Source: a virus | Taxonomy: Duplodnaviria; Heunggongvirae; Uroviricota; Caudoviricetes | Virus record (IMG/VR): IMGVR_UViG_2740892269_000010 | DNA: 17,104 nucleotides | Strand: one strand, 5' to 3' | In this document: positions 54-17,040 of the stretch, piece by piece | Position numbering within the stretch: the stretch's first letter is position 1 | How the letters are laid out: the number at the start of each line of letters is the position of its first letter | Program-made: the position numbers and the translations under genes | Notes under the pieces: generated by a model | The model's database searches: none | Seen by the model: only the letters and a program-made list of their open reading frames with translations | Told to the model about the DNA's origin: nothing

Positions 54-227
54 TTAAAAAAAGAACAAATGGTAGTGTCCGCTATTGCCAGTACACCTCA
101 GGGTATAAGGGGTTATGGCCACCGGACTACCAAACGGCTGCCAGCCCTCTTTCAGTTTATGTGTCAGCTTTTCCGCAAGATCTGACGGCGGCGCCGCCCT
201 GACAACATCATAGTGTTTAAATGCCAT
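54..227 (-). CDS. Hypothetical small prophage protein (about 57 aa from the internal ATG; the ORF extends to 242)
   Basis: Six-frame ORF 54..242 on the minus strand. The internal ATG at 227-225 is preceded by GGAAAG about 5 nt upstream (reverse complement of 233-238), a plausible Shine-Dalgarno. No motif recognised. Lies in the prophage late-transcription direction. Confidence 0.3.
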   Translation of the reverse strand: MAFKHYDVVRAAPPSDLAEKLTHKLKEGWQPFGSPVAITPYTLRCTGNSGHYHLFFF

Positions 228-487
228 GGTTCTTTCCACCATCTGAAAAATAATTCTTTAAAATACCTGACATGTAATACAGAAAAAACACAAAACCATA
301 CCTTAAATAAAAACCTGATTATCAAGCAGATATGCATGGATAAACTACAAGACGAGATATAAACCACCCTGCATTTAAATAAACAATAAACAACATCAGA
401 AAAATAATTCTGCTCTATGGTTTACATTCAAAAATATCATTTATACTTTTCAGAACATCACCAGCAAGGCATAAACAAGGAAACTAA

Positions 488-823
488 ATGAAGTGGATTG
501 TGATTGATACAGTTATCCAGCCATCATGCGGAATATCTTTTTCAGTCATATGGAGTAAAATAAAATTAATAATCTGGTATCAATCGGATGCTTTCTTACC
601 TCCTGAAAGTATATTTACACTGACTCACACAGGCATCATGCTCAATAACAAAGTGCTACCTGTAACCATTTACAACGTAGTACCATTCAATAAAACATTC
701 TGGAATTCAATCAAAAATAGCCAGGAATGCCCTACAAATACAGATAACGTATTGAATGAATGCTTTAATAACCGTTGCACTCTGCAAATATGTCCTTATG
801 GACTAAAACAACAAAGTCCATAA
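488..823 (+). CDS. Candidate AT-rich cargo (moron-like) ORF, 111 aa, unknown function
   Basis: ATG at 488 preceded by AAGGA (476-480) at 7-nt spacing. Upstream sigma70-like hexamers TTTACA (421-426) and TATACT (442-447). A 9-bp perfect hairpin at 858-879 lies 35 nt after the stop. Very AT-rich compared with flanking DNA. No recognisable domain; in an AT-rich region an ORF of this length could arise by chance. Confidence 0.3.
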
Positions 824-857
824 GGAGTTTACTCACATCTGACAAAATCAATATAAA

Positions 858-879
858 CAGCCCCTCCGGAGAGGGGCTG
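858..879 (-). terminator. Strong GC hairpin, probable rho-independent terminator for minus-strand (phage late-direction) transcripts
   Basis: Stem cagcccctc (858-866), loop cgga, stem gaggggctg (871-879). On the minus strand it is followed by a T-rich tract (complement of aaaatcaatataaa at 844-857). No T-tract on the plus side. Confidence 0.45.
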
Positions 880-1270
880 GAGAGTGGCGCTATGTGCCAT
901 TGCATGGTGCCGGGTGCCTCCCGGTGAATTCAGTACCAGCACCTGAATCCGCGATTATCCCATATACCTACTCGCTGATTGCCCCTCCGCACAGGGGGAT
1001 TCACCATGCCAGTTTCTTTTAACAAACTCCCCGCAAACCAGACAACAGTCAACCGCCTGAATTGTGAAGTATTTAAAAATTTCTCCCGCTAACTGATACC
1101 CGGCTAACAGTCTGGCGTTTTCTTTTTCAGCAACGGGAAAGCAACAACCACCACACCCGCCACCAGCACACCGTCAGCCAGCACTGACATTATCCGGCTG
1201 CTGCAATGCCATTCACAAAAACAGTAAGCAATCACTTTTTACCGTAACAGGTGATAATCCAGATATGTAT

Positions 1271-1734: not shown

Positions 1735-1811
1735 TGGCGCGCTGTACTGGATTCGAACCAGTGACCGATTGCTTAGAAGGCAATTGNNNNNNNNNNNNNN
1801 NNNNNNNNNNN
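1735..1811 (-). tRNA. tRNA-Arg (anticodon UCU), 3' half visible, 5' part masked by N
   Basis: Reverse complement of 1735-1786 reads caattgccttctaagcaatcggtcactggttcgaatccagtacagcgcgcca. This gives an anticodon stem attgc/gcaat with loop cTTCTAa (anticodon TCT), a T-stem actgg/ccagt with loop TTCGAAT, a 7-nt acceptor 3' strand, discriminator G and an encoded CCA. The 5' end at about 1811 is extrapolated from a 77-nt length. Confidence 0.6.
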
Positions 1812-2077
1812 NNNNNNNNNNNNNNNNNNNNNNNNNNNNNNNNNNNNNNNNNNNNNNNNNNNNNNNNNNNNNNNNNNNNNNNNNNNNNNNNNNNNNNNNN
1901 NNNNNNNNNNNNNNNNNNNNNNNNNNNNNNNNNNNNNNNNNNNNNNNNNNNNNNNNNNNNNNNNNNNNNNNNNNNNNNNNNNNNNNNNNNNNNNNNNNNN
2001 NNNNNNNNNNNNNNNNNNNNNNNNNNNNNNNNNNNNNTGTAGAAACTCTTCTAACGTCAGGCATAAAACGCCCATAG

Positions 2078-2932
2078 TTATGACGAATTTACCACAGATT
2101 CCGGAAAAATCAACCTAGTTACCTTTTTTAACTGCCGCTCAGCCCATGCTTCTTCAATATCAAACCGAGTCACCAGCGCATCATAGAATTTCTTAACTGT
2201 TTTTTCCCATGACGCGCGTGTTATCTGGTTTGTCACCTCGCATATAGCATTAAATGCCTCCGTTGATGGTAGTCTTTCATAGCCACGACCACCACAACGC
2301 TGGCAGTCTCTGATAACAGGCATACCACGTTTTACCGACTCTTCACGATGAATGGCGACACCACGCCCACGGCAATCCTTACAGGCGGTGGAAACCTCAC
2401 CCTTTCCGCCACACTCCGGACAGGCAACTTTTACCACCTCCCTGACTTTTTTCCATTCTTCCCAGTAAGACGGATACACACCTTTCGTACACTTTGCCCA
2501 TACCGGCGGCTTACCATCCGGATACTGGACCTTGTTTGTAAAAACTACGCTTTCAATAAATTTTTCCCCATAGCAACAAGGGCACTGCTTTTTACTCGCT
2601 GCGCTGCGGGCATAATCCTCAAAAGCGTACGAAGCCATAATGCGCATCACTACCGGTTTTATTTCTGCCGGAAGTTTTCTCAACGCCGCCACACGATCGC
2701 ACCGACTGAGTGCATAATCTGCCAGTAATTCTGTTGCCCGCGCCCTGTCATTCATACTGATGCCCATTTTCCCCAGGAACGCAGAAAACCCCATCTCAGC
2801 CCGATTCTGTGTCATGCCCTGCGCGGCCATCACATCAGTGATACTCAGCGCATCTTTTGACGTTGAGGCCGATGCATCGGTCAGGCAAGGGGATTTTGGG
2901 GAGTAGTATTTCGGTAAATCTTCCAGTTTCAT
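2078..2932 (-). CDS. Putative lambdoid late-gene antiterminator (Q-like), 284 aa, with DnaJ-type CxxCxGxG zinc-finger repeats
   Basis: Position is diagnostic: immediately downstream of rusA with a 4-nt overlap (2929-2932) and immediately upstream of the tRNA island, as in lambdoid late-regulatory regions. The protein contains CPECGGKG, CKDCRGRG and CQRCGGRG repeats plus CPCCYGEK. The family assignment is from context, not a recognised alignment. Confidence 0.55.
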   Translation of the reverse strand: MKLEDLPKYYSPKSPCLTDASASTSKDALSITDVMAAQGMTQNRAEMGFSAFLGKMGISMNDRARATELLADYALSRCDRVAALRKLPAEIKPVVMRIMASYAFEDYARSAASKKQCPCCYGEKFIESVVFTNKVQYPDGKPPVWAKCTKGVYPSYWEEWKKVREVVKVACPECGGKGEVSTACKDCRGRGVAIHREESVKRGMPVIRDCQRCGGRGYERLPSTEAFNAICEVTNQITRASWEKTVKKFYDALVTRFDIEEAWAERQLKKVTRLIFPESVVNSS

Positions 2933-3303
2933 TTTTTGACCTGCTCTTCATGCATTATGGGGTAAATCTTCACCCCCAGACGTCCACCAGATACTGGCTG
3001 ACCACGAACGATATTGATTTCATCAAACTGCTCATCGTCCATTAACACTCCCGCATGTGTCAGTGCATCCAGTGGTGCTTTCAGGATATTGTCCAGGTCA
3101 CGACGGCGCTTATCCGGTGGCTCTGCAATAATCTTTATCGCCAGTCTTCCGGACAGGCTTAATTTCAGTCGCTGCTGACGGACAATAAGCGCCACATCCC
3201 GGCGATAACGCTCACCGGCTTTTGATACAAAATATGTGTTGTCACGACGTCGCCAGTAAGTATTCACCGTCGGCGGATAAGGTAAAATAAACTCATGGCG
3301 CAT
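2929..3303 (-). CDS. rusA: RusA-family Holliday junction resolvase (crossover junction endodeoxyribonuclease), 124 aa
   Basis: The protein carries DKRRRDLDN followed by LDAL and an acidic DDEQ cluster, matching the conserved RusA core (K-12 RusA has DRRRRDLDN as I recall it). Typical nin-region position upstream of Q. Confidence 0.85.
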   Translation of the reverse strand: MRHEFILPYPPTVNTYWRRRDNTYFVSKAGERYRRDVALIVRQQRLKLSLSGRLAIKIIAEPPDKRRRDLDNILKAPLDALTHAGVLMDDEQFDEINIVRGQPVSGGRLGVKIYPIMHEEQVKK

Positions 3304-3545
3304 CAGCGCAGCACCTCCTGCACCAGTTTTTCAAACTTTCCGACTCTGGTTTCCAGCTCTGCCACACAGTCCACCAGCTCATCTACTGCTTTCTGTGCGC
3401 GATGCTTCGCCTGCATCAGTTCCCGAAGCGCGGGTACCATATCTTTACGGATAGCGTCTTTTGTTATGCCCGTTTTTTCGAGTTGTTCAGCATGACGCAG
3501 CATTTCCTGCGCGTGTTTACGCAATTGTTCAGGGGTAAAAGTCAT
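3303..3545 (-). CDS. Hypothetical prophage nin-region protein (about 80 aa from the ATG at 3545; the ORF track extends to a TTG at 3560)
   Basis: ORF 3303..3560 on the minus strand. Its stop overlaps the rusA start by 1 nt (TGATG), suggesting translational coupling. Predicted helical, charged protein; no motif recognised. Confidence 0.5.
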   Translation of the reverse strand: MTFTPEQLRKHAQEMLRHAEQLEKTGITKDAIRKDMVPALRELMQAKHRAQKAVDELVDCVAELETRVGKFEKLVQEVLR

Positions 3546-3771
3546 TGTCTGGTTGTTCAAAAGAAACGCTCCATCTTACTGCTGTCAGTTCGTTTATTAC
3601 TGTATCTGCGCGGATTGCCGGGCTTCATGGGAGTGGAAAGCACCCGTGCACTTTCCTGGTCCACAGGCAGAAAATGTCCGTAGACTGGCCCCCTGAATCT
3701 CCAGACAACCAGTATCACTTAAATAAGTGATAGTCTTAATACTAGTTTTTAGACTAGTCATTGGAGTACAG

Positions 3772-4137
3772 ATGATTGATGTCTTAGGGCCGGAGAAACG
3801 CAGACGGCGTACCACACAGGAAAAGATCGCAATTGTGTCAACGCCACGATGTTTGACCGTTATTTGCCATTTTCATGCCCGCTAAATACTTTCGTTAGCC
3901 AGCCAGTTATTTCTCTGGCGTAAGCAATACCAGGAAGGAAGTCTTACTGCTGTCGCCGCCGGAGAACAGGTTGTTCCTGCCTCTGAACTTGCTGCCGCCA
4001 TGAAGCAGATTAAAGAACTCCAGCGCCTGCTCGGCAAGAAAACGATGGAAAATGAACTCCTCAAAGAAGCCGTTGAATATGGACGGGCAAAAAAGTGGAT
4101 AGCGCACGCGCCCTTATTGCCCGGGGATGGGGAGTAA
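3772..4137 (+). pseudogene. insC: IS2 insC (orfA) disrupted by a premature stop at 3883-3885 inside a 60-bp non-homologous block
   Basis: Same start context as copy 2 insC. From 3837 the sequence diverges for exactly 60 nt and carries an in-frame TAA. Homology and frame resume at 3897. Confidence 0.8.
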
Positions 4138-5000
4138 GCTTAGTCAGCCGTTGTCTCCGGGTGTCGCGTGCGCAGTTGCACGTCATTCTCAGACGAACCG
4201 ATGACTGGATGGATGGCCGCCGCAGTCGTCACACTGATGATACGGATGTGCTTCTCCGTATACACCATGTTATCGGAGAGCTGCCCACGTATGGTTATCG
4301 TCGGGTATGGGCGCTGCTTCGCAGACAGGCAGAACTTGATGGTATGCCTGCGATCAATGCCAAACGTGTTTACCGGATCATGCGCCAGAATGCGCTGTTG
4401 CTTGAGCGAAAACCTGCTGTACCGCCATCGAAACGGGCACATACAGGCAGAGTGGCCGTGAAAGAAAGCAATCAGCGATGGTGCTCTGACGGGTTCGAGT
4501 TCTGCTGTGATAACGGAGAGAGACTGCGTGTCACGTTCGCGCTGGACTGCTGTGATCGTGAGGCACTGCACTGGGCGGTGACTACCGGCGGCTTCAACAG
4601 TGAAACAGTACAGGACGTCATGCTGGGAGCGGTGGAACGCCGCTTCGGCAACGATCTTCCGTCGTCTCCAGTGGAGTGGCTGACGGATAATGGTTCATGC
4701 TACCGGGCTAATGAAACACGCCAGTTCGCCCGGATGTTGGGACTTGAACCGAAGAACACGGCGGTGCGGAGTCCGGAGAGTAACGGAATAGCAGAGAGCT
4801 TCGTGAAAACGATAAAGCGTGACTACATCAGTATCATGCCCAAACCAGACGGGTTAACGGCAGCAAAGAACCTTGCAGAGGCGTTCGAGCATTATAACGA
4901 ATGGCATCCGCATAGTGCGCTGGGTTATCGCTCGCCACGGGAATATCTGCGGCAGCGGGCTTGTAATGGGTTAAGTGATAACAGATGTCTGGAAATATAG
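4095..5000 (+). CDS. insD: IS2 transposase OrfB (InsD) reading frame, 301 aa, intact
   Basis: Identical 301-aa translation to copy 2. Normally expressed as an OrfAB fusion by -1 frameshift at the A6G motif (4089-4095); that cannot yield a normal fusion here because orfA is disrupted. Confidence 0.85.
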
Positions 5001-5011
5001 GGGCAAATCCA
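4971..5011 (+). repeat. IS2 right terminal inverted repeat (IRR) of copy 1
   Basis: 41-nt terminus ending in ...ggggcaaatcca. A perfect inverted match to 5248-5288. Confidence 0.9.
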
Positions 5012-5247
5012 NNNNNNNNNNNNNNNNNNNNNNNNNNNNNNNNNNNNNNNNNNNNNNNNNNNNNNNNNNNNNNNNNNNNNNNNNNNNNNNNNNNNNNNNN
5101 NNNNNNNNNNNNNNNNNNNNNNNNNNNNNNNNNNNNNNNNNNNNNNNNNNNNNNNNNNNNNNNNNNNNNNNNNNNNNNNNNNNNNNNNNNNNNNNNNNNN
5201 NNNNNNNNNNNNNNNNNNNNNNNNNNNNNNNNNNNNNNNNNNNNNNN

Positions 5248-5288
5248 TGGATTTGCCCCTATATTTCCAGACATCTGTTATCACTTAA
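5248..5288 (+). repeat. Right-end-type (IRR-like) terminus at the left end of IS2 copy 2
   Basis: tggatttgcccctatatttccagacatctgttatcacttaa is the exact reverse complement of the right ends at 4971-5011 and 6537-6577. From 5289 it continues as normal IS2 left-end interior (ataagtgatagtc...). Confidence 0.85.
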
Positions 5289-5337
5289 ATAAGTGATAGT
5301 CTTAATACTAGTTTTTAGACTAGTCATTGGAGTACAG

Positions 5338-5703
5338 ATGATTGATGTCTTAGGGCCGGAGAAACGCAGACGGCGTACCACACAGGAAAAGATCGCAATT
5401 GTTCAGCAGAGCTTTGAACCGGGGATGACGGTCTCCCTCGTTGCCCGGCAACATGGTGTAGCAGCCAGCCAGTTATTTCTCTGGCGTAAGCAATACCAGG
5501 AAGGAAGTCTTACTGCTGTCGCCGCCGGAGAACAGGTTGTTCCTGCCTCTGAACTTGCTGCCGCCATGAAGCAGATTAAAGAACTCCAGCGCCTGCTCGG
5601 CAAGAAAACGATGGAAAATGAACTCCTCAAAGAAGCCGTTGAATATGGACGGGCAAAAAAGTGGATAGCGCACGCGCCCTTATTGCCCGGGGATGGGGAG
5701 TAA
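5338..5703 (+). CDS. insC: IS2 OrfA (InsC), 121 aa, DNA-binding transposition protein
   Basis: ATG at 5338 ([26 protein letters not shown]...); the ORF track extends upstream to 5293. Ends at 5703, overlapping insD. Confidence 0.9.
5655..5661 (+). other. A6G slippery heptamer for programmed -1 frameshifting between insC and insD
   Basis: aaaaaag at the insC/insD overlap; the same motif is at 4089-4095 in copy 1. Frameshift-dependent OrfAB expression is established for IS2 and the IS3 family. Confidence 0.7.
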
Positions 5704-6566
5704 GCTTAGTCAGCCGTTGTCTCCGGGTGTCGCGTGCGCAGTTGCACGTCATTCTCAGACGAACCGATGACTGGATGGATGGCCGCCGCAGTCGTCACAC
5801 TGATGATACGGATGTGCTTCTCCGTATACACCATGTTATCGGAGAGCTGCCCACGTATGGTTATCGTCGGGTATGGGCGCTGCTTCGCAGACAGGCAGAA
5901 CTTGATGGTATGCCTGCGATCAATGCCAAACGTGTTTACCGGATCATGCGCCAGAATGCGCTGTTGCTTGAGCGAAAACCTGCTGTACCGCCATCGAAAC
6001 GGGCACATACAGGCAGAGTGGCCGTGAAAGAAAGCAATCAGCGATGGTGCTCTGACGGGTTCGAGTTCTGCTGTGATAACGGAGAGAGACTGCGTGTCAC
6101 GTTCGCGCTGGACTGCTGTGATCGTGAGGCACTGCACTGGGCGGTGACTACCGGCGGCTTCAACAGTGAAACAGTACAGGACGTCATGCTGGGAGCGGTG
6201 GAACGCCGCTTCGGCAACGATCTTCCGTCGTCTCCAGTGGAGTGGCTGACGGATAATGGTTCATGCTACCGGGCTAATGAAACACGCCAGTTCGCCCGGA
6301 TGTTGGGACTTGAACCGAAGAACACGGCGGTGCGGAGTCCGGAGAGTAACGGAATAGCAGAGAGCTTCGTGAAAACGATAAAGCGTGACTACATCAGTAT
6401 CATGCCCAAACCAGACGGGTTAACGGCAGCAAAGAACCTTGCAGAGGCGTTCGAGCATTATAACGAATGGCATCCGCATAGTGCGCTGGGTTATCGCTCG
6501 CCACGGGAATATCTGCGGCAGCGGGCTTGTAATGGGTTAAGTGATAACAGATGTCTGGAAATATAG
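5661..6566 (+). CDS. insD: IS2 transposase OrfB (InsD), 301 aa
   Basis: ORF 5661..6566, identical translation to the copy 1 frame. Frame is -1 relative to insC. Confidence 0.9.
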
Positions 6567-6577
6567 GGGCAAATCCA

Positions 6578-6733
6578 GGTACTGCCGAAAATATTCAGAT
6601 AGAGCTGAGGGATGACCAGGATGCTGCGTTAAAAAATGGCGATAGCAAAACGGTTATTGTTGATGAGATCACTCGTAATGCACAGTTTCCACTTAAGGCA
6701 AGAGCTATCACGGTGAATGGAAACGCAAGCTAG
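6578..6733 (+). pseudogene. ydeR: 3' remnant (51 codons) of a fimbrial minor subunit gene truncated by IS2; ydeR-like by gene order
   Basis: In-frame translation from the IS2 boundary reads GTAENIQIELRDDQDAALKNGDSKTVIVDEITRNAQFPLKARAITVNGNAS, a pilin-type C-terminus. It sits directly upstream of the FimH-like ydeQ, the position of ydeR in K-12. No start codon or 5' part is present. Confidence 0.5.
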
Positions 6734-6836
6734 GGAACGATCGAGGCGCTAATCAATGTGATCTACACCTGGCAATAACGTCGATTCGATTTTCTTAGCC
6801 TTCTTTTTAAATCAATTTTTAACCTTAGGATATATC

Positions 6837-7751
6837 ATGGGTAAAACAATCAGTATAAAGGTCCTGTTCGGTATTTATCTTCTATTAATGGCAGGCAAAG
6901 TTTTTGCCTTCAGTTGTAATGTCGATGGCGGGTCAAGTATTGGAGCAGGTACAACCTCTGTTTATGTTAATCTCGACCCTGTAATACAGCCGGGCCAGAA
7001 TCTGGTTGTAGACTTGTCTCAGCATATAAGTTGCTGGAATGATTACGGCGGCTGGTACGACACTGATCATATAAACCTGGTACAAGGCTCAGCTTTCGCA
7101 GGCTCCCTACAGTCATATAAAGGATCGCTGTACTGGAATAATGTGACCTACCCCTTCCCGTTGACGACAAATACCAACGTATTGGATATTGGTGATAAGA
7201 CACCGATGCCATTACCGTTAAAACTCTATATTACCCCAGTTGGGGCGGCCGGTGGAGTTGTCATAAAAGCGGGGGAAGTCATTGCCCGTATTCATATGTA
7301 TAAAATTGCAACATTAGGAAGCGGAAATCCGCGTAATTTTACGTGGAATATTATTTCAAATAACAGTGTTGTTATGCCAACAGGCGGCTGCACCGTTGAT
7401 AGTCGTAATGTCACTGTGGATCTCCCGGACTTTCCTGGAAGCGCAGAAATACCCCTTGGCGTATATTGCTCAAGCGAACAAAAGCTCTCATTTTATCTTT
7501 CGGGTGCCACCACTGACAGTAGCCGACAAGTGTTTGCTAACACAGCACCTGATGCAACAAAAGCATCGGGAGTGGGTGTCACTCTAATGCGTAATGGAAA
7601 AATACTGGCTACGGGAGAAAATGTCTCCCTGGGGACAGTAAATAAAAGCAAAGTACCTCTGGGTTTAAGCGCAACCTATGGACAAACAGGAAACAAGGTT
7701 TCAGCCGGAACCGTCCAGTCAGTCATTGGTGTCACTTTTATCTATGAATAA
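6837..7751 (+). CDS. ydeQ: FimH-family fimbrial tip adhesin homologue, 304 aa
   Basis: Signal-peptide-like N-terminus. Strong collinear similarity to FimH ([51 protein letters not shown]). RBS agga at 6827-6830. Confidence 0.85.
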
Positions 7752-7823
7752 TTGTGATTTTGACCTTAGTCTATGCGCTCCATTCACGAAAATTGCGCAG
7801 ATAATTATTTTGTGAAGGCTATT

Positions 7824-7841
7824 ATCCTACACCTGTAAGAA
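7824..7841 (+). promoter_or_regulatory. Candidate EvgA-box inverted repeat upstream of ydeP
   Basis: ATCCTACA-CC-TGTAAGAA: two half-sites in inverted orientation with a 2-bp spacer, and a near-identical copy upstream of safA (10567-10584). ydeP and safA-ydeO are established EvgA targets. Confidence 0.5.
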
Positions 7842-8084
7842 AATCCGCGCACAATTGAAGCCAGAGTCTTATTTTTTATATTGAAAAATATGTTAATTTA
7901 AACACTATGAGAGATGATGCTTAACTTATCGTATTTAATCTATTGTTTAACGATAATAGATTAAAAATAGAAAGAGAGTAGTCCCCTACTCTTATATATC
8001 CATGTTGGCGATAATCCCTTTGTATGTACTGTGCATCATCGCTATTACAAATCCTAATAATTCATTTCCACACAGGATAAGTAG

Positions 8085-10448
8085 ATGAAGAAAAAAATTG
8101 AATCCTACCAGGGTGCTGCAGGTGGTTGGGGTGCTGTTAAATCCGTAGCGAATGCAGTACGTAAGCAGATGGATATACGCCATGATGTTATTGCCATGTT
8201 TGACATGAATAAGCCAGAGGGCTTTGACTGTCCGGGTTGTGCATGGCCAGATCCTAAGCACAGTGCGTCATTCGACATTTGTGAAAACGGCGCAAAAGCA
8301 ATCGCCTGGGAAGTCACGGATAAGCAGGTAAATGCCTCTTTCTTTGCTGAGAATACGGTTCAATCATTACTTACCTGGGGAGATCACGAGCTTGAGGCTG
8401 CGGGGCGTCTCACTCAGCCTTTGAAATATGATGCCGTCAGCGACTGTTACAAGCCATTAAGCTGGCAACAAGCTTTCGACGAAATTGGCGCACGCCTTCA
8501 AAGCTATAGTGATCCCAATCAGGTTGAATTCTATACTTCGGGCCGCACTTCCAATGAAGCTGCCTTTCTTTATCAGCTTTTTGCCCGTGAATACGGGAGC
8601 AATAACTTTCCCGACTGCTCCAACATGTGCCATGAACCGACAAGCGTGGGTTTGGCAGCGAGTATCGGTGTAGGTAAAGGGACCGTGTTGCTGGAAGACT
8701 TTGAGAAGTGCGATTTAGTCATTTGCATTGGGCATAACCCTGGTACAAACCACCCTCGCATGCTGACTTCGTTGCGCGCTTTAGTGAAACGGGGAGCGAA
8801 AATGATCGCCATCAATCCTCTACAGGAACGTGGCCTGGAGCGATTTACCGCACCGCAAAACCCGTTTGAAATGCTGACGAACTCTGAGACTCAGTTGGCC
8901 AGTGCCTACTACAACGTGCGCATTGGTGGCGATATGGCGTTGCTCAAGGGGATGATGCGCCTGTTAATTGAGCGCGATGATGCTGCAAGTGCCGCAGGTC
9001 GGCCCTCATTGCTTGATGACGAATTTATTCAAACGCATACCGTCGGCTTTGACGAGCTACGCCGTGACGTTCTCAATTCCGAGTGGAAAGATATCGAACG
9101 TATTTCTGGACTAAGTCAGACACAAATCGCCGAACTGGCTGACGCATATGCCGCTGCCGATCGCACCATTATCTGTTACGGAATGGGGATCACTCAGCAC
9201 GAACATGGTACCCAGAATGTACAGCAACTGGTCAATCTGCTGTTGATGAAAGGTAACATTGGCAAGCCTGGTGCGGGTATCTGCCCACTACGAGGTCACT
9301 CTAATGTACAGGGCGACCGAACCGTCGGTATCACCGAGAAACCGTCTGCAGAGTTTCTGGCTCGCCTGGGTGAGCGCTATGGCTTCACCCCACCTCATGC
9401 ACCTGGACATGCTGCAATTGCCAGCATGCAAGCAATATGCACGGGGCAGGCTCGAGCATTGATCTGCATGGGGGGCAACTTTGCACTGGCAATGCCAGAT
9501 CGGGAAGCGAGCGCTGTACCGTTAACGCAATTAGATTTGGCGGTACACGTAGCCACTAAGCTTAACCGCTCTCATCTGCTGACCGCACGGCATAGCTATA
9601 TTCTGCCGGTTCTGGGGCGTAGCGAGATTGACATGCAAAAAAGCGGTGCGCAGGCGGTAACCGTTGAGGATTCAATGTNNNNNNNNNNNNNNNNNNNNNN
9701 NNNNNNNNNNNNNNNNNNNNNNNNNNNNNNNNNNNNNNNNNNNNNNNNNNNNNNNNNNNNNNNNNNNNNNNNNNNNNNNNNNNNNNNNNNNNNNNNNNNN
9801 NNNNNNNNNNNNNNNNNNNNNNNNNNNNNNNNNNNNNNNNNNNNNNNNNNNNNNNNNNNNNNNNNNNNNNNNNNNNNNNNNNNNNNNNNNNNNNNNNNNN
9901 NNNNNNNNNNNNNNNNNNNNNNNNNNNNGTTACCAGAGTTCGCCGACTATAACCAGCGCATCCGACATCCTGGAGGTTTTCACCTGATAAATGCAGCTGC
10001 TGAAAGGCGCTGGATGACGCCGTCAGGTAAGGCTAATTTCATTACCAGCAAAGGGCTGTTAGAAGATCCCTCTTCAGCGTTTAACAGTAAGCTGGTCATG
10101 GCGACAGTACGTAGCCACGATCAGTACAACACGACGATTTATGGTATGGATGATCGCTATCGAGGGGTATTCGGTCAACGAGATGTGGTCTTTATGAGTG
10201 CTAAACAAGCTAAAATTTGCCGTGTAAAAAACGGCGAAAGAGTTAATCTTATTGCGCTTACGCCAGACGGTAAGCGCAGCTCACGCCGCATGGATAGATT
10301 AAAAGTGGTCATTTACCCTATGGCTGACCGCTCACTGGTGACCTATTTTCCAGAATCGAATCACATGCTAACTCTTGATAACCACGATCCATTAAGTGGC
10401 ATTCCTGGTTATAAAAGTATTCCGGTTGAATTAGAACCATCAAATTAA
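8085..10448 (+). CDS. ydeP: YdeP, molybdopterin oxidoreductase family (formate dehydrogenase-like) acid-resistance protein
   Basis: 787-codon ORF; the middle is N-masked (9679-9928) but the frame is preserved. N-terminal Cys cluster CPGCAW...C. AGGA RBS 7 nt before the ATG at 8085; the in-frame ATG at 8169 (MDIRH...) would give the 759-aa form I recall for K-12. Confidence 0.9.
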
Positions 10449-10461
10449 TTCGCCTCCTCAT

Positions 10462-10500
10462 TTCTTCTGCTGTCATCCGCACAGCAGAAGAATTTCTCAT
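10462..10500 (+). terminator. Rho-independent terminator after ydeP
   Basis: Perfect 12-bp stem ttcttctgctgt / acagcagaagaa with loop catccgc, followed by tttctcatt. Confidence 0.6.
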
Positions 10501-10566
10501 TGACTATTATCGCGCAATTTGCTCACATTGATTAAATTAAACCACACACTATAAGATATAAACCTC

Positions 10567-10584
10567 TGCCTACAGCTGTAAGAA
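10567..10584 (+). promoter_or_regulatory. Candidate EvgA-box inverted repeat upstream of safA-ydeO
   Basis: TGCCTACA-GC-TGTAAGAA, 112 nt upstream of the safA ATG. Possible -10 TATATT at 10637-10642. Confidence 0.55.
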
Positions 10585-10695
10585 ACTCCGCTCAGTACTG
10601 AAGTGCCAGTCCTATTTCCTCTTTTCTCCAGCCTGTTATATTAAGCATACTGATTAACGATTTTTAACGTTATCCGCTAAATAAACATATTTGAA

Positions 10696-10893
10696 ATGTA
10701 TGCGACCACAGTGAAAAACAAAATCACGCAAAGAGACAACTATAAAGAAATCATGTCTGTAATTGTGGTTGTCTTATTACTGACCCTTACGTTGATAGCC
10801 ATTTTTTCGGCAATTGATCAGCTGGGTATTTCAGAAATGGGTCGCATTGCAAGAGATCTTACACATTTCATTATCAATAGTTTGCAAGACTGA
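10696..10893 (+). CDS. safA: SafA, small membrane protein linking EvgS/EvgA to PhoQ, 65 aa
   Basis: Translation MYATTVKNKITQRDNYKEIMSVIVVVLLLTLTLIAIFSAIDQLGISEMGRIARDLTHFIINSLQD, with a single central hydrophobic helix. Sits directly upstream of ydeO as in K-12. Confidence 0.85.
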   Translation: MYATTVKNKITQRDNYKEIMSVIVVVLLLTLTLIAIFSAIDQLGISEMGRIARDLTHFIINSLQD

Positions 10894-10967
10894 AAATAAA
10901 CAGCAAATTATAAATATGAAATGTTAAAAAAGTATCGATAAAAACTTTATTGTTTTAAGGAGATAAA

Positions 10968-11735
10968 ATGTCGCTCGTTTGTTCTGTTATATTTATTCAT
11001 CATGCCTTCAACGCTAACATTTTAGATAAAGATTACGCCTTCTCTGACGGCGAGATCCTGATGGTAGATAACGCTGTTCGTACGCATTTTGAACCTTATG
11101 AGCGGCATTTTAAAGAGATCGGATTTACTGAAAATACCATTAAAAAATATCTACAATGCACTAACATNNNNNNNNNNNNNNNNNNNNNNNNNNNNNNNNN
11201 NNNNNNNNNNNNNNNNNNNNNNNNNNNNNNNNNNNNNNNNNNNNNNNNNNNNNNNNNNNNNNNNNNNNNNNNNNNNNNNNNNNNNNNNNNNNNNNNNNNN
11301 NNNNNNNNNNNNNNNNNNNNNNNNNNNNNNNNNNNNNNNNNNNNNNNNNNNNNNNNNNNNNNNNNNNNNNNNNNNNNNNNNNNNNNNNNNNNNNNNNNNN
11401 NNNNNNNNNNNNNNNNNNNNCCATGGAAGCTGAAAGATATTTGTGACTGCCTGTACATCAGTGAAAGCCTGTTGAAGAAAAAACTAAAGCAAGAGCAAAC
11501 GACATTCTCACAGATTCTATTAGATGCCAGAATGCAGCACGCAAAAAATTTGATACGCGTAGAAGGTTCAGTCAATAAAATTGCCGAACAATGTGGTTAT
11601 GCCAGTACATCTTATTTTATTTATGCGTTCCGCAAACATTTCGGCAACAGTCCGAAGAGAGTTTCTAAGGAGTACCGTTGTCAAAGTCACATGGGTATGA
11701 ATACGGGCAACACGATGAGTGCTTTAGCTATTTGA
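10968..11735 (+). CDS. ydeO: YdeO, AraC-family acid-resistance transcriptional activator
   Basis: RBS aaggag at 10957-10962. N-terminus MSLVCSVIFIHHAFNANILDKDYAF and a C-terminal AraC HTH (KIAEQCGYASTSYFIYAFRKHFGNSPKRV). The middle is N-masked (11168-11420). Confidence 0.9.
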   Translation: MSLVCSVIFIHHAFNANILDKDYAFSDGEILMVDNAVRTHFEPYERHFKEIGFTENTIKKYLQCTNXXXXXXXXXXXXXXXXXXXXXXXXXXXXXXXXXXXXXXXXXXXXXXXXXXXXXXXXXXXXXXXXXXXXXXXXXXXXXXXXXXXXXPWKLKDICDCLYISESLLKKKLKQEQTTFSQILLDARMQHAKNLIRVEGSVNKIAEQCGYASTSYFIYAFRKHFGNSPKRVSKEYRCQSHMGMNTGNTMSALAI

Positions 11736-11783
11736 TTATTTGCTAACGAGTAGTCAACCACGCACGCTGCGTAAGAATTAAAT

Positions 11784-11815
11784 GGGGCAGCCATTCCCTG
11801 CCCCGCGTTGTTTTT
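11784..11815 (+). terminator. Rho-independent terminator after ydeO
   Basis: Stem ggggcag / ctgcccc with loop ccattcc, followed by gcgttgttttt. Confidence 0.55.
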
Positions 11816-12135
11816 AGGCGATATATTTATTGAAATAAATAAGTGACATCCATCACATATTTATGCACTTGCATAACCTGTTGCAGATTATTTATGATCT
11901 CAATTCGGCATTTTGTCAGTAAAATGCAATAATTTATTAAATATCAATAAATTAGTTGTTTATCGGCGAGAAATTACTTAATAGAACAGAAAGTAATGTC
12001 AACGCTTTATGGACTGTTATTTCCCTTTTTTTAGCTAAATCTGCTATCTCTTTATGTGACTAACTTCACTTACATCCACTTATTTCTCTTCGTAAAATTA
12101 CTTCGGAATTAAGTACAATAAGAAGAGGAACATTT

Positions 12136-13818
12136 ATGAAGTCTGCATTAAAGAAAAGTGTCGTAAGTACCTCGATATCTTTGATACTGGCATCTGGTAT
12201 GGCTGCATTTGCTGCTCATGCGGCAGATGATGTAAAGCTGAAAGCAACCAAAACAAACGTTGCTTTCTCAGATTTTACGCCGACTGAATACAGTACCAAA
12301 GGAAAGCCAAATATTATCGTACTAACCATGGATGATCTTGGTTATGGACAACTTCCTTTTGATAAGGGATCTTTTGACCCAAAAACAATGGAAAATCGTG
12401 AAGTTGTCGATACCTACAAAATAGGGATAGATAAAGCCATTGAAGCTGCACAAAAATCAACGCCGACGCTCCTTTCATTAATGGATGAAGGCGTACGTTT
12501 TACTAACGGCTATGTGGCACACGGTGTTTCCGGCCCCTCCCGTGCCGCAATAATGACCGGTCGAGCTCCCGCCCGCTTTGGTGTCTATTCCAATACCGAT
12601 GCTCAGGATGGTATTCCGCTAACAGAAACTTTCTTGCCTGAATTATTCCAGAATCATGGTTATTACACTGCAGCAGTAGGTAAATGGCACTTGTCAAAAA
12701 TCAGTAATGTGCCGGTACCGGAAGATAAACAAACGCGTGACTATCATGACAACTTCACCACATTTTCTGCGGAAGAATGGCAACCTCAAAACCGTGGCTT
12801 TGATTACTTTATGGGATTCCACGCTGCAGGAACGGCATATTACAACTCCCCTTCACTGTTCAAAAATCGTGAACGTGTCCCCGCAAAAGGTTATATCAGC
12901 GATCAGTTAACCGATGAGGCAATTGGCGTTGTTGATCGTGCCAAAACACTTGACCAGCCTTTTATGCTTTACCTGGCTTATAATGCTCCGCACCTACCAA
13001 ATGATAATCCTGCACCGGATCAATATCAGAAGCAATTTAATACCGGTAGTCAAACAGCAGATAACTACTACGCTTCCGTTTATTCTGTTGATCAGGGTGT
13101 AAAACGCATTCTCGAACAACTGAAGAAAAACGGACAGTATGACAATACAATTATTCTCTTTACCTCCGATAATGGTGCGGTTATCGATGGTCCTCTGCCG
13201 CTGAACGGGGCGCAAAAAGGCTATAAGAGTCAGACCTATCCTGGCGGTACTCACACCCCAATGTTTATGTGGTGGAAAGGAAAACTTCAACCCGGTAATT
13301 ATGACAAGCTGATTTCCGCAATGGATTTCTACCCAACAGCTCTTGATGCAGCCGATATCAGCATTCCAAAAGACCTTAAGCTGGATGGTGTTTCCTTGCT
13401 GCCCTGGTTGCAAGATAAGAAACAAGGCGCGCCACATAAAAATCTGACCTGGATAACCTCTTATTCTCACTGGTTTGATGAGGAAAATATTCCATTCTGG
13501 GATAATTACCACAAATTTGTTCGCCATCAGTCAGACGATTACCCGCATAACCCCAACACTGAGGACTTAAGCCAATTCTCTTATACGGTGAGAAATAACG
13601 ATTATTCGCTTGTCTATACAGTAGAAAACAATCAGTTAGGTCTCTACAAACTGACGGATCTACAGCAAAAAGATAACCTTGCCGCCGCCAATCCGCAGGT
13701 CGTTAAAGAGATGCAAGGCGTGGTAAGAGAGTTTATCGACAGCAGCCAGCCACCGCTTAGCGAGGTAAATCAGGAGAAGTTTAACAATATCAAGAAAGCA
13801 CTAAGCGAAGCGAAATAA
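12136..13818 (+). CDS. ydeN: YdeN, predicted periplasmic Ser-type sulfatase, 560 aa
   Basis: RBS aggaa. Sec-type signal peptide ending AHAADD. Sulfatase signature S-G-P-S-R at 12529-12543 with Ser at the formylglycine position. Confidence 0.85.
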   Translation: MKSALKKSVVSTSISLILASGMAAFAAHAADDVKLKATKTNVAFSDFTPTEYSTKGKPNIIVLTMDDLGYGQLPFDKGSFDPKTMENREVVDTYKIGIDKAIEAAQKSTPTLLSLMDEGVRFTNGYVAHGVSGPSRAAIMTGRAPARFGVYSNTDAQDGIPLTETFLPELFQNHGYYTAAVGKWHLSKISNVPVPEDKQTRDYHDNFTTFSAEEWQPQNRGFDYFMGFHAAGTAYYNSPSLFKNRERVPAKGYISDQLTDEAIGVVDRAKTLDQPFMLYLAYNAPHLPNDNPAPDQYQKQFNTGSQTADNYYASVYSVDQGVKRILEQLKKNGQYDNTIILFTSDNGAVIDGPLPLNGAQKGYKSQTYPGGTHTPMFMWWKGKLQPGNYDKLISAMDFYPTALDAADISIPKDLKLDGVSLLPWLQDKKQGAPHKNLTWITSYSHWFDEENIPFWDNYHKFVRHQSDDYPHNPNTEDLSQFSYTVRNNDYSLVYTVENNQLGLYKLTDLQQKDNLAAANPQVVKEMQGVVREFIDSSQPPLSEVNQEKFNNIKKALSEAK

Positions 13819-13830
13819 CTAAACCTTCAT

Positions 13831-13850
13831 GCGGCGGATTTTTCCGCCGC
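13831..13850 (+). other. Intercistronic hairpin between ydeN and ydeM (possible weak terminator or attenuator)
   Basis: Perfect 7-bp stem gcggcgg / ccgccgc with loop attttt, followed by a poor T-tract (cttattg). Confidence 0.35.
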
Positions 13851-13869
13851 CTTATTGAGCGAGATAGCG

Positions 13870-15027
13870 ATGCACGTTACAGCCAAGCCCTCCAGTTTTC
13901 AATGTAATCTCAAATGTGATTACTGTTTTTACCTTGAAAAAGAGTCGCAGTTTACTCATGAAAAATGGATGGATGACAGCACTCTGAAAGAGTTCATCAA
14001 ACAATATATCGAAGCGTCTGGCAATCAGGTCTATTTTACCTGGCAAGGCGGTGAACCCACTCTGGCTGGCCTGGATTTTTTCCGTAAAGTTATTCACTAT
14101 CAACAACGCTATGCAGGCCAAAAACGTATTTTTAATGCATTACAAACGAATGGCATTTTATTGAATAATGAATGGTGTGCCTTTCTCAAAGAACATGAAT
14201 TTCTGGTTGGTATCTCGATCGATGGCCCCCTGGAGTTACATGACCGTTACAGACGCAGTAATTCAGGTAACGGTACTTTTGCAAAAGTGATAGCAGCCAT
14301 CGAGCGTCTGAAATCATATCAAGTAGAGTTTAATACGTTAACCGTCATTAATAACGTTAATGTCCATTACCCTCTTGAGGTTTATCATTTTTTAAAATCT
14401 ATCGGCAGTAAACATATGCAATTTATCGAATTGCTAGAAACCGGGACGCCGAATATTGATTTCAGTGGTCATAGTGAGAACACATTCCGTATCATTGATT
14501 TTTCTGTGCCTCCCACGGCTTATGGCAAGTTTATGTCAACCATTTTTATGCAATGGGTTAAAAACGATGTGGGTGAAATTTTCATTCGTCAGTTTGAAAG
14601 CTTTGTCAGCCGTTTTTTGGGGAATGGGCATACAAGTTGTATTTTCCAGGAGTCCTGCAAGGATAATCTGGTTGTTGAAAGTAATGGAGACATTTACGAA
14701 TGCGACCATTTTGTCTATCCACAGTACAAAATTGGAAACATTAATAAATCTGAACTCAAAACGATGAACAGTGTACAACTGACAGCGCAAAAAAAACGGA
14801 TTTCAGCGAAATGTCAGCAATGTGCATATAAACCTATCTGCAATGGCGGTTGTCCTAAGCATCGTATTACTAAAGTAAACAATGAGACTGTTTCTTATTT
14901 TTGCGAAGGTTATAAAATCCTTTTTTCAACCATGGTACCTTATATGAACGCCATGGTTGAGTTAGCTAAGAACAGAGTACCGCTTTACCACATTATGGAT
15001 GTTGCAAAACAAATGGAGAATAATTAA
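13870..15027 (+). CDS. ydeM: YdeM, radical-SAM anaerobic sulfatase-maturating enzyme homologue, 385 aa from the ATG at 13870
   Basis: CxxxCxxC radical-SAM motif CNLKCDYC (13903-13926) and C-terminal Cys clusters (CDHF..., [17 protein letters not shown]). The ORF track extends to a TTG at 13855 inside the hairpin; the ATG at 13870 is preferred. Confidence 0.85.
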
Positions 15028-15080
15028 TAACGCTCTCTTTTAACTCCATTCTTAGCCTCCTTCTTATGACCTTAACAAGG

Positions 15081-15110
15081 CACCCGACATAAATTCCTGT
15101 CGGGTGTTTC
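15081..15110 (+). terminator. Candidate terminator after ydeM
   Basis: 9-bp stem cacccgaca / tgtcgggtg with loop taaattcc, followed by only a short T run (tttc). Confidence 0.4.
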
Positions 15111-15323
15111 GTCATCATCATCTTCCCTTGCGAAAATCCTGGCTTACGTGGTATGCGTCAGGGCATTAGCAATACCCTTGATTATCAATAGCATAACCAT
15201 AACCATAACCACTGAAAATTAAAAATTTCTATATATTTCATATTGTTAAATGATACTTAAATAAATTTCATCAGTAAATCATTGCCATAGATAATCATTG
15301 GATGGCACAATCAATTTTCGCTA

Positions 15324-17009
15324 ATGATAACCATTCCCATTACGTTTTATATGTTGATAGCAAAGTATCTCTGTCTGCTGAAGCCCTTTTGGCTGCGTAA
15401 GAATAATAAAACTTCAGTGTTGTTAATCATTATTATCCTCGCAATGATCCTTGGCGTGGTTAAAATTCAGGTCTGGTTAAACGACTGGAATAATGATTTT
15501 TTCAATGCGCTAAGCCAGAAAGAAACCGATAAGCTTTGGCAGCTTGTTCTTTGGTTCCCTGCCCTGCTGGGGATCTTTGTATTAATATCCGTAAACAAAA
15601 CATGGTTAATTAAACTACTGACTATTCGCTGGCGCGAATGGTTAACAGATTACTACCTTAATCGCTGGTTTGCAGATAAAAACTACTACTTCACGCAGAT
15701 CTACGGCGAGCATAAAAATACAGATAACCCTGACCAACGTATCGCTGAAGACATTCTCTTACTGATCAGCAAAACGCTCAGTCTTTCATTTGGCTTCATC
15801 CAGTCACTTAGCATGCTGATCACCTTTACCGTTATTCTTTGGCAAAGCGCGGGTACGCTCTCATTCACTGTTGGTGGAACAGAATGGAATATCCAGGGGT
15901 ATATGGTCTATACCGTCGTGCTCATTGTGATCGGTGGAACTTTATTTACCCATAAGGTGGGTAAACGTATTCGTCCGCTTAATGTGGAAAAACAACGTAG
16001 CGAAGCGACATTTCGAACTAATCTTGTGCAGCATAATAAGCAGACAGAACTGATTGCGCTAAGCAATGCTGAGTCTCTACAACGCCAGGAGTTGCGCGAC
16101 AATTTTCATACCATTAAAGAGAACTGGCATCGTTTAATGAATCGTCAGCGGTGGCTTGATTACTGGCAAAATATTTATTCGCGCTCGCTTAGCGTTCTTC
16201 CCTACTTTCTGTTATTGCCGCAGTTTATTAGCGGGCAGATCAATCTGGGCGGACTGATGAAATCGCGCCAGGCATTTATGCTAGTATCGAACAATTTAAG
16301 CTGGTTTATTTATAAATATGACGAACTTGCTGAACTGGCTGCGGTTATCGATCGCTTGTATGAGTTCCATCAACTCACTGAACAGCGCCCTACGAATAAG
16401 CCTAAAAATTGCCAACATGCGGTACAAGTGGCTAATGCGAGTATTCGTACGCCTGATAATAAGATCATATTAGAGAACTTGAACTTTCATGTTTCGCCAG
16501 GCAAATGGCTATTACTGAAAGGCTACTCTGGTGCGGGAAAAACCACACTGCTTAAAACATTATCCCACTGCTGGCCGTGGTTTAAAGGTGATATTTCTTC
16601 TCCTGCTGACAGTTGGTATGTGTCACAAACACCGTTAATCAAAAGCGGCTTACTGAAAGAGATTATTTGTAAAGCACTTCCCCTGCCCGTAGACGATAAA
16701 TCGTTGAGCGAAGTACTGCATCAGGTTGGTCTGGGGAAATTGGCTGCGCGTATTCATGACCACGATCGCTGGGGAGATATTCTTTCCAGCGGCGAAAAAC
16801 AACGTATCGCCCTGGCACGATTAATTTTACGACGTCCGAAATGGATATTTCTTGACGAAACTACCTCTCATCTTGAGGAACAAGAGGCTATACGCTTACT
16901 GCGTTTAGTGCGTGAAAAACTACCCACAAGCGGCGTCATTATGGTTACACATCAACCCGGTGTCTGGAACCTGGCTGATGATATTTGTGACATTAGCACG
17001 GTTTTATAA
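15324..17009 (+). CDS. yddA: YddA, fused permease/ATPase ABC transporter, 561 aa
   Basis: N-terminal hydrophobic segments. Walker A GYSGAGKTTLLK, ABC signature LSSGEKQRIALARL and Walker B WIFLDETTSHL. Length and position match K-12 yddA. Confidence 0.85.
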   Translation: MITIPITFYMLIAKYLCLLKPFWLRKNNKTSVLLIIIILAMILGVVKIQVWLNDWNNDFFNALSQKETDKLWQLVLWFPALLGIFVLISVNKTWLIKLLTIRWREWLTDYYLNRWFADKNYYFTQIYGEHKNTDNPDQRIAEDILLLISKTLSLSFGFIQSLSMLITFTVILWQSAGTLSFTVGGTEWNIQGYMVYTVVLIVIGGTLFTHKVGKRIRPLNVEKQRSEATFRTNLVQHNKQTELIALSNAESLQRQELRDNFHTIKENWHRLMNRQRWLDYWQNIYSRSLSVLPYFLLLPQFISGQINLGGLMKSRQAFMLVSNNLSWFIYKYDELAELAAVIDRLYEFHQLTEQRPTNKPKNCQHAVQVANASIRTPDNKIILENLNFHVSPGKWLLLKGYSGAGKTTLLKTLSHCWPWFKGDISSPADSWYVSQTPLIKSGLLKEIICKALPLPVDDKSLSEVLHQVGLGKLAARIHDHDRWGDILSSGEKQRIALARLILRRPKWIFLDETTSHLEEQEAIRLLRLVREKLPTSGVIMVTHQPGVWNLADDICDISTVL

Positions 17010-17040
17010 CAACAATAAAAGCCCTGCTGTACGGAGTAAT

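Follow-up and report, generated by a model that had tools for sequence, protein, structure and literature searches.

The closest described counterpart of the gene discussed here is iraL of CFT073 (c1429; WP_000871291.1; Hryckowian 2014, mBio 5:e01043-14), which was found by screening CFT073 fragments for raised sigma-S-dependent expression (PMC4045071). Deletion of iraL in CFT073 and in S. sonnei reduces the log-phase level of sigma-S, deletion lowers sigma-S half-life from ~5 to ~2.5 min, and sigma-S rises in K-12 when iraL is expressed from its native promoter (PMC4045071). The gene is expressed in log phase without stress, and IraL copurifies with RssB. Two-hybrid data show binding of IraL to RssB's N-terminal domain only, whereas IraM binds both domains (PMC4045071).

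The paralogue IraM of K-12 (YcgW) is PhoP-induced and has been solved in complex with RssB (8TWD). In this structure, residues 1-78 of IraM form a PmrD-like β-barrel that is docked on RssB, at the receiver domain's α4-β5-α5 face. IraM also contacts RssB's segmented helical linker and C-terminal domain, and its docking keeps sigma-S away from RssB (PMC10844676). As a finding, iraL is thus already known, since it was described in 2014 and the complex of its paralogue with RssB is available. A second element of relevance here is STnc100, a known prophage sRNA that is related to PasD and has been reported 75 nt downstream of stx2B.

Here, we discuss an AT-rich segment in a 17,104-nucleotide stretch of viral DNA (IMG/VR record IMGVR_UViG_2740892269_000010), hereafter referred to as the window. 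Our main reading, with a probability of about 0.94, is that the open reading frame (ORF) at 488-823 is iraL, a cargo gene of lambdoid prophages encoding an anti-adaptor against RssB. The identity of the gene, its promoter sequence, the fold and contact residues of its product, the coding constraint, and the anatomy of the locus come from the present analysis, while RssB binding, sigma-S stabilization, and the transcription start site are taken from the cited papers. The features of the locus are as follows.

54-242, minus strand: remnant of a DUF1737 gene with an IS3-family element in place of its 3′ end (Pfam PF08410, E 1.5e-15)
243-830, no strand: AT-rich cargo segment, comprising the iraL promoter region and coding sequence (GC content)
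421-455, plus strand: iraL promoter, with -35 TTTACA at 421-426, a 15-nt spacer, -10 TATACT at 442-447, and predicted start at A455 (CFT073 hexamers, published RACE)
478-481, plus strand: Shine-Dalgarno sequence AGGA, 6 nt 5′ of the ATG (read from the sequence)
488-823, plus strand: coding sequence of iraL, an RssB anti-adaptor of 111 aa (NCBIfam, identity, PDB, AF2, dN/dS)
728-802, plus strand: codons of C81-P82 ... C92 ... C97 ... C102-P103-Y104-G105 (family alignment)
849-1038, minus strand: STnc100-family sRNA gene, convergent with iraL (Rfam RF02076)
858-879, minus strand: STnc100 terminator, a hairpin (9-bp G+C-rich stem, 4-nt loop) with TTTATATTGA behind it on this strand (terminator scan, Rfam)
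1104-1235, minus strand: DUF3927 small-protein gene, upstream of STnc100 and on the late-gene strand (Pfam PF13064, E 1.7e-27)
1787-2037, minus strand: masked stretch of N, the equivalent of which is overlapped by tRNA genes in the identical S. sonnei locus (N run)
2078-2932, minus strand: antiterminator Q (Pfam PF03589, E 7e-55)
2929-3303, minus strand: RusA (Pfam PF05866, E 1.8e-16)

Identity and coding constraint of the ORF

The ORF starts with ATG, stops with TAA, and encodes 111 aa, 110 of which are identical to CFT073 IraL; the sole difference is L74S. Over the 333 bases of the coding region that were compared, two differ from CFT073, one synonymously and one not. Hryckowian (2014) defined iraL by an identity of at least 95% at the nucleotide level to CFT073 iraL across the coding region, with no overlap with iraM, and, for the promoter region, by an upstream region at least 96% identical together with a mapped start site. 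ORF 488-823 falls within this definition with respect to both the coding region and the promoter region. A multispecies Shigella entry named "anti-adapter protein IraM", seen on >999 contigs, has exactly this 111-aa sequence, and S. sonnei 53G encodes it. Moreover, a megablast search with 1-1700 gave 99.4-99.6% identity in many E. coli genomes, in which the gene is annotated under the same name.

At the level of protein families, residues 1-110 score 162 bits with NCBIfam NF007393 ("anti-adapter protein IraM"), for which the curated cutoff is 121 (E 4.7e-48), and a PDB search with the product matched 8TWD (E 6e-31). Pfam was scanned with an E limit of 0.01 and subsequently of 10, and no relevant match was obtained. 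A Nairovirus_NSm match at E 0.056 was judged to be due to chance. The original prediction that the product carries no recognizable domain consequently stands for Pfam, while it fails for NCBIfam and PDB, and its description as an uncharacterized accessory protein has to be replaced, as the product is IraL, a protein already studied in CFT073.

Relative to its paralogues, the ORF has a dN/dS of 0.10-0.15 (K-12 iraM, 0.15; Stx-phage paralogue, 0.12), and the synonymous sites are close to saturation in these comparisons. The frame is intact, and neither frame loss nor an absence of coding constraint was seen when we looked for them. The ORF is a real gene, as predicted; it is coding and under purifying selection.

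Promoter, hairpin, and the convergent STnc100 gene

The segment at 250-830 had been singled out as much more AT-rich than its surroundings, and this holds: its GC content is 32.2%, compared with 44.8% for the whole window, 49% in 1-249, 49% in the Q/RusA genes (2078-3560), and 44% in 831-1700. Within it, GC amounts to 0.286 in 243-487 and 0.345 in the ORF. It is the 581-nt stretch with the lowest GC in the window. Only 0.16% of 13,213 sliding windows of this size are equally low, and all of these begin at 210-251, i.e., they overlap 250-830.

The predicted hexamers TTTACA and TATACT are present at 421-426 and 442-447, and both are identical in the window and in CFT073, while the region 230-487 as a whole differs at 4 positions. 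Differences between the two genes include A for G at -1 and T485 for C in the 5′ UTR, in addition to S74 for L74. The iraL mRNA, the start of which has been mapped, begins with ACATCACCAGCAAGG..., and this sequence maps to base 455. The published 5′ RACE end, ACATCACCAGCAAGGCATAAACAAGGAAAC (Hryckowian 2014, PMC4045071), corresponds to the window from 455 onward, in agreement with the transcript start that had been expected near this position. The good ribosome binding site claimed for the gene is likewise found, as the AGGA motif listed above. A generic promoter scan omits the TTTACA/TATACT pair because its spacer is 15 nt and the scan demands 16-18 nt; the other promoters given by the scan (e.g., 380-408 and 539-566) are no commoner than in shuffles. 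With respect to regulation, iraL has been reported to be raised in a CFT073 fur mutant, and a later paper gives a change in iraL mRNA of +1.6 log2 at 37 °C relative to 23 °C. A candidate Fur box in 243-500 was rejected, as the best match (11/19) was equalled by 478 of 500 shuffles.

The hairpin at 858-879 begins 34 nt past the iraL stop codon, and the plus-strand sequence 824-900 folds at -28.9 kcal/mol (z = -3.5 versus shuffles). A T-run, TTTATATTGA, follows the stem only on the minus strand. In the plus-strand direction, GAGAGTGGCG comes after the stem and a U-run is absent, and the terminator scan reports the hairpin for the minus strand alone. This one-sidedness is what would be expected if the hairpin terminates the minus-strand STnc100 gene. 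Region 849-1038 (minus strand) scores 132.4 bits with RF02076 (E 4e-30; the gathering score is 47) in a match that spans all 206 positions of the model, and the hairpin together with its U-run aligns with the terminator helix of the covariance model. The hairpin is, first of all, the Rho-independent terminator of STnc100.

Could the hairpin instead be the terminator of iraL itself, closing a self-contained cassette of promoter, ORF, and terminator? The inverted repeat is perfect, and hence the stem forms equally in plus-strand RNA. It is positioned shortly after the stop codon, and the scan found no other plus-strand terminator near iraL. However, the stem leads into GAGAGTGGCG rather than a U-run on this strand, and stem plus U-run fit the terminator helix of a full-length STnc100 match. 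We therefore regard a dedicated iraL terminator as possible but doubtful. The two roles are not exclusive: since the stem also forms in plus-strand RNA, the hairpin may partly stop or stabilize the iraL mRNA while terminating STnc100. In terms of the original prediction, a strong hairpin 35 nt downstream does exist (at 34 nt), but its U-run lies on the minus strand and belongs to STnc100.

Returning to the STnc100 gene, the match in the window covers the entire model including the terminator, and lambdoid/Stx prophages are a known location of this sRNA. The difference is that it follows DUF3927 here and stx2B elsewhere. STnc100 is arranged tail-to-tail with an iraL-type gene in 6/6 prophage or phage loci examined, this window included, and it is absent from iraM-type loci. 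The same hairpin adjoins the iraL-like gene of the Stx2c phage 2851.

In our literature search, no paper mentioning both STnc100 and iraL-type genes was found. Nor did we find the pairing of the two reported, including the position directly downstream of stx2B.

It is conceivable, though rather improbable in our judgment, that the iraL-type gene and STnc100 constitute one conserved convergent cargo module of lambdoid and Stx prophages that shares a single hairpin. In this scenario, the hairpin would act as a one-way terminator that, in the lysogen, protects iraL against transcription running leftward, late transcription modified by Q would pass the hairpin and run antisense across iraL, and read-through of the iraL mRNA would be antisense to STnc100.

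Fold, RssB contacts, and the cysteine-rich tail

Irrespective of how its transcript ends, the gene read as iraL encodes a product whose structure can be compared with that of IraM. An AlphaFold2 model of IraL was built from 39 family members (mean pLDDT 88.1) and replaced an earlier 13-sequence model (pLDDT 63, with the tail <50). The model predicts a PmrD-like antiparallel β-barrel with one helix, as in IraM 1-78 (8TWD). Foldseek aligns it with 8twd_A at a TM of 0.91 and an rmsd of 1.2 Å over 78 columns, and PmrD structures rank next. PmrD (4HN7, 2RQX, 2JSO) is similar in having a small β-barrel fold (TM 0.70-0.73) and in binding the receiver domain of a response regulator, but it is only 14-20% identical, its target is PmrA and not RssB, and it has no Cys-rich tail. 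When hmmscan was run directly on the product with an E limit of 10, the PmrD profile PF11183 did not match, and a precomputed PF11183 match is listed for it by the protein database. Taken with the model, this suggests that the likeness to PmrD is one of fold only.

Residues of IraM that contact RssB were taken from PMC10844676. Those touching the receiver domain (I4, I6, W22, K26, and I42) are identical in IraL in five cases out of five. Within the clusters that contact the C-terminal domain and the linker, four of nine positions are changed between IraL and IraM (T13S, L75I, H63N, and I64V). Retained receiver contacts combined with altered C-terminal-domain and linker contacts would fit the reported binding of IraL to the N-terminal domain only. 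The L74S substitution sits in the single helix, adjoining contact residue 75. Position 74 varies freely across the family, and S74 is the common Shigella allele.

K-12 IraM and IraL have in common the family, the fold, the RssB N-terminal-domain contacts, and a 4-Cys tail. The gene is, moreover, named IraM by both PGAP and NCBIfam, contact cluster I is the same as in IraM, and the minus strand at 376-392 carries a PhoP-box-like repeat (TGTTTA-N5-TATTTA, 11/12). These features might suggest that the ORF is the equivalent of K-12 IraM, induced through PhoP/PhoQ upon Mg2+ starvation and clamping both RssB domains. We consider this very unlikely. The product is 61% identical to K-12 IraM (ungapped across 107 aa) compared with 99% to IraL, and the DNA upstream of iraL gives no alignment with the K-12 iraM promoter region. 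The PhoP-box-like repeat is weak, being equalled in 25 of 500 shuffles of the same AT-rich DNA. In addition, stress-free expression in log phase and N-terminal-only RssB binding have been published (PMC4045071), and the changed C-terminal-domain and linker contacts described above set IraL apart from IraM. The K-12 gene also differs in its locus, which is next to e14 and has no STnc100 neighbor, and IraL has four extra C-terminal residues.

As for the tail of IraL, each of its Cys residues is present in 32-33 of the 34 full-length family members, down to ~20-35% identity, and the motif is better conserved among these members than most RssB-contact residues. This part was cut off for the crystallized IraM 1-78 and was described as less conserved and flexible (PMC10844676). 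In the IraL models its pLDDT is 64-78 with the 39-sequence alignment, compared with <50 when 13 sequences were used. The Cys-rich character noticed in the original prediction hence marks a part that is among the best conserved when the wider family is considered. Literature on IraM and cysteine yielded no report of the motif. The four Cys residues may constitute a switch through which metal or redox state sets the stability of the anti-adaptor.

Four points weigh against iraL as the best explanation of the ORF: the proximity of L74S to contact 75, the 15-nt promoter spacer, the lack of a canonical plus-strand terminator in the scan, and the lack of a Pfam match in direct scans.

The prophage remnant, the wider family, and sigma-S

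The gene is positioned in a 3.8-kb prophage remnant that extends from 98 to ~3897. On the left, similarity to intact prophages begins at base 98 (E. coli 042 match), the edge being an IS3-family element that cuts DUF1737; in S. sonnei, the transposase gene ends at the equivalent of window base 57. On the right, the remnant is bounded by IS2 at ~3897, after a short ORF 3′ of RusA. Both breakpoints are common to S. sonnei. The DNA of S. sonnei 53G is 100% identical over 1-1786 and 99.9% over 2038-3897, and that of S. sonnei CP104423.1 is 100% identical over both intervals. With its tRNA region masked as N, the window yielded no tRNA in ARAGORN. In S. sonnei, the locus carries tRNA-Arg(tct) and a tRNA with a CAT anticodon at 11248-11500, which equals window 1735-1987, and a terminator-like hairpin at 11563->11544, inside the equivalent of the N stretch 1787-2037. 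Beyond the remnant, 3680-17036 contains IS2 twice and then E. coli-type chromosome with ydeP, ydeN, ydeM, and yddA. None of the complete E. coli genomes holds the whole arrangement of the window. The DNA is therefore assigned to a genome of the Shigella type.

The gene order Q, tRNAs, small ORFs (DUF3927 among them), STnc100, iraL (antisense), DUF1737, holin, and lysozyme is seen in intact relatives, namely the CFT073 potB prophage, E. coli 042, and phage vB_EcoS-640R1. That is, iraL is inserted antisense in the classic cargo position, between the Q/tRNA block and the lysis cassette. The CFT073 locus has the same neighbors as the window (DUF1737, STnc100, DUF3927, tRNAs, Q, and RusA) and the same antisense orientation of iraL, and a few bases are changed in the flanking 770 nt. 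The difference is that CFT073 has an intact prophage where the window has an IS-bounded remnant. The claim that the ORF runs against the phage late genes is confirmed, as DUF1737, DUF3927, Q, and RusA are all on the minus strand. Its proposed classification as a moron with its own promoter and terminator agrees with the position as cargo between phage modules, with the deviant GC content, and with the promoter; as to the terminator, a hairpin is present, with its U-run on the opposite strand, and it is that of STnc100. Collectively, these data support the view that iraL is horizontally acquired, AT-rich prophage cargo (a "moron").

The remnant retains iraL, STnc100, DUF3927, the tRNAs, Q, and RusA, whereas all lysis and structural genes are lost. 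Maintenance of iraL under these circumstances fits a benefit to the host rather than to the phage. That the ORF is an uncharacterized moron with a phage-centred role in superinfection exclusion or toxicity is extremely improbable: layout and composition are typical of morons, but the family has a known target and a solved complex, the ORF is kept in Shigella remnants devoid of phage structural and lysis genes, and the evidence gathered shows no sign of toxicity or phage exclusion.

Regarding the distribution of the anti-adaptor gene, the 5426 complete E. coli genomes include 1439 with the iraL locus, in up to five places per genome. The IraM/IraL/RssC family is small: a set of 5.8 billion proteins gives 20 clusters of it at 90% identity, and one of 1.84 billion gives ~95 representatives at 50% identity. 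Scanning species-representative genomes with the family alignment identified seven loci, only in Escherichia, Shigella, and one Citrobacter. The Citrobacter member lies on the chromosome, with purB on one side and an OmpR-type response regulator on the other.

Stx2c and Stx2a phages encode a 107-aa IraL homologue (73% identical), antisense and immediately behind stx2B and STnc100. Most records leave it unannotated, and we did not find it reported in the literature, nor did we find a functional test of it there. In phage 2851 (Stx2c; FM180578.1, 24233-24562), this homologue resembles iraL in being an antisense ORF followed by the hairpin and STnc100, downstream of Q and tRNAs, with similar upstream DNA. 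Apart from the shorter product, the difference is that stx2AB is inserted between the tRNAs and STnc100.

Combining the published data with the features of this locus, we infer that this iraL copy is expressed and active. It would be transcribed from its own sigma-70-type promoter, starting at 455, and the resulting mRNA would give a 111-aa IraL with a PmrD-like β-barrel core. IraL would then bind RssB, a response-regulator-like adaptor, at the receiver domain's α4-β5-α5 face. With RssB blocked, sigma-S (RpoS) would not be delivered to ClpXP and would build up even in growing cells.

Recognizing iraL matters for annotation. Because PGAP labels the gene IraM and Pfam is silent, readers who work from sequence only will go on flagging it as unknown. 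Moreover, should the iraL-type gene and STnc100 prove to be a single module with one hairpin, the state of the prophage, the sRNA, and the stability of sigma-S would be coupled.

The STnc100–iraL pair and its counterpart in Stx2 phages

The anti-adaptor gene iraL converges on a full-length STnc100 sRNA gene, and the hairpin at 858-879 is the terminator of the latter.

849-1038, minus strand: STnc100 (Rfam RF02076, 132 bits)
858-879, minus strand: STnc100 terminator hairpin

The same tail-to-tail pairing of STnc100 with an iraL-type gene is found in E. coli 042, S. sonnei, and a second E. coli genome, twice in E. albertii, and in the Stx2c phage 2851. The iraM-type loci examined lack a paired STnc100, and a literature search returned no paper in which STnc100 and IraM are named together. 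In phage 2851, the iraL-type gene lies antisense, directly after stx2cB and STnc100.

L004 (phage 2851 locus) 5001-5324, FM180578.1 24233-24562, antisense: 107-aa IraL/IraM homologue, 73% identical to IraL

This homologue is present in 41 phage records (Stx2, Stx2a, and Stx2c), in most of which it carries no annotation. The DNA upstream of the phage 2851 gene resembles the iraL promoter region, with TATAAT as the -10 hexamer. Farther upstream of iraL in the window, a direct repeat resembles a PhoP box.

376-392, minus strand: TGTTTA-TTGTT-TATTTA (11/12), ~63-79 nt upstream of the iraL start

Since 25 of 500 shuffles reach the same score, this repeat is at most weakly suggestive of a PhoP box.

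The Cys-rich tail and the PmrD annotation

The C-terminal part of IraL carries a conserved motif, each of whose four cysteines is kept in 32-33 of the 34 full-length family members.

728-802, plus strand: C-P-x9-C-x4-C-x4-C-P-Y-G, IraL residues 81-105

In the IraM structure paper, the tail was described as less conserved and flexible, and it was cut off the construct (PMC10844676). With a deeper alignment, the AF2 confidence of the IraL tail rises from <50 to 64-78. For all IraL/IraM clusters in the protein collection, a precomputed Pfam match to PF11183 (PmrD) is given; direct hmmscan against the current Pfam-A returned no match to this profile, even at E up to 10.

Genomic setting and decay of the family

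Insertion sequences bound the prophage remnant on both sides (1-97 and 3897-6580). At the left border, the DUF1737 gene has lost its 3′ end, and the end of an IS3-family element stands in its place; two IS2 copies follow on the right.

4095-5000 and 5661-6566: 301-aa ORFs of the two IS2 copies
1787-2037, 5012-5247, 9679-9928, and 11168-11420: masked N runs

S. sonnei has the same two remnant breakpoints, but unlike the window it carries an additional IS21 at the right one. In S. sonnei, whose locus is identical, the stretch corresponding to the run 1787-2037 is overlapped by prophage genes for tRNA-Arg(tct) and for a tRNA with a CAT anticodon, and it contains a terminator-like hairpin just downstream of the antiterminator gene Q.

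Two further family members are the following.

L018 (Citrobacter sp. ANG330) 6001-6330: chromosomal member, 54% identical
L019 (E. coli strain ECGI0523) 6001-6318: iraM-type copy broken by frameshifts and stop codons

The Citrobacter copy is flanked by purB and a histidine phosphatase gene on one side and by LpxR and OmpR-type response regulator genes on the other, with neither a prophage around it nor STnc100 at the locus. This site may represent an older, non-phage home of the IraL/IraM family. As the disrupted ECGI0523 copy shows, family members can degenerate in some lineages.
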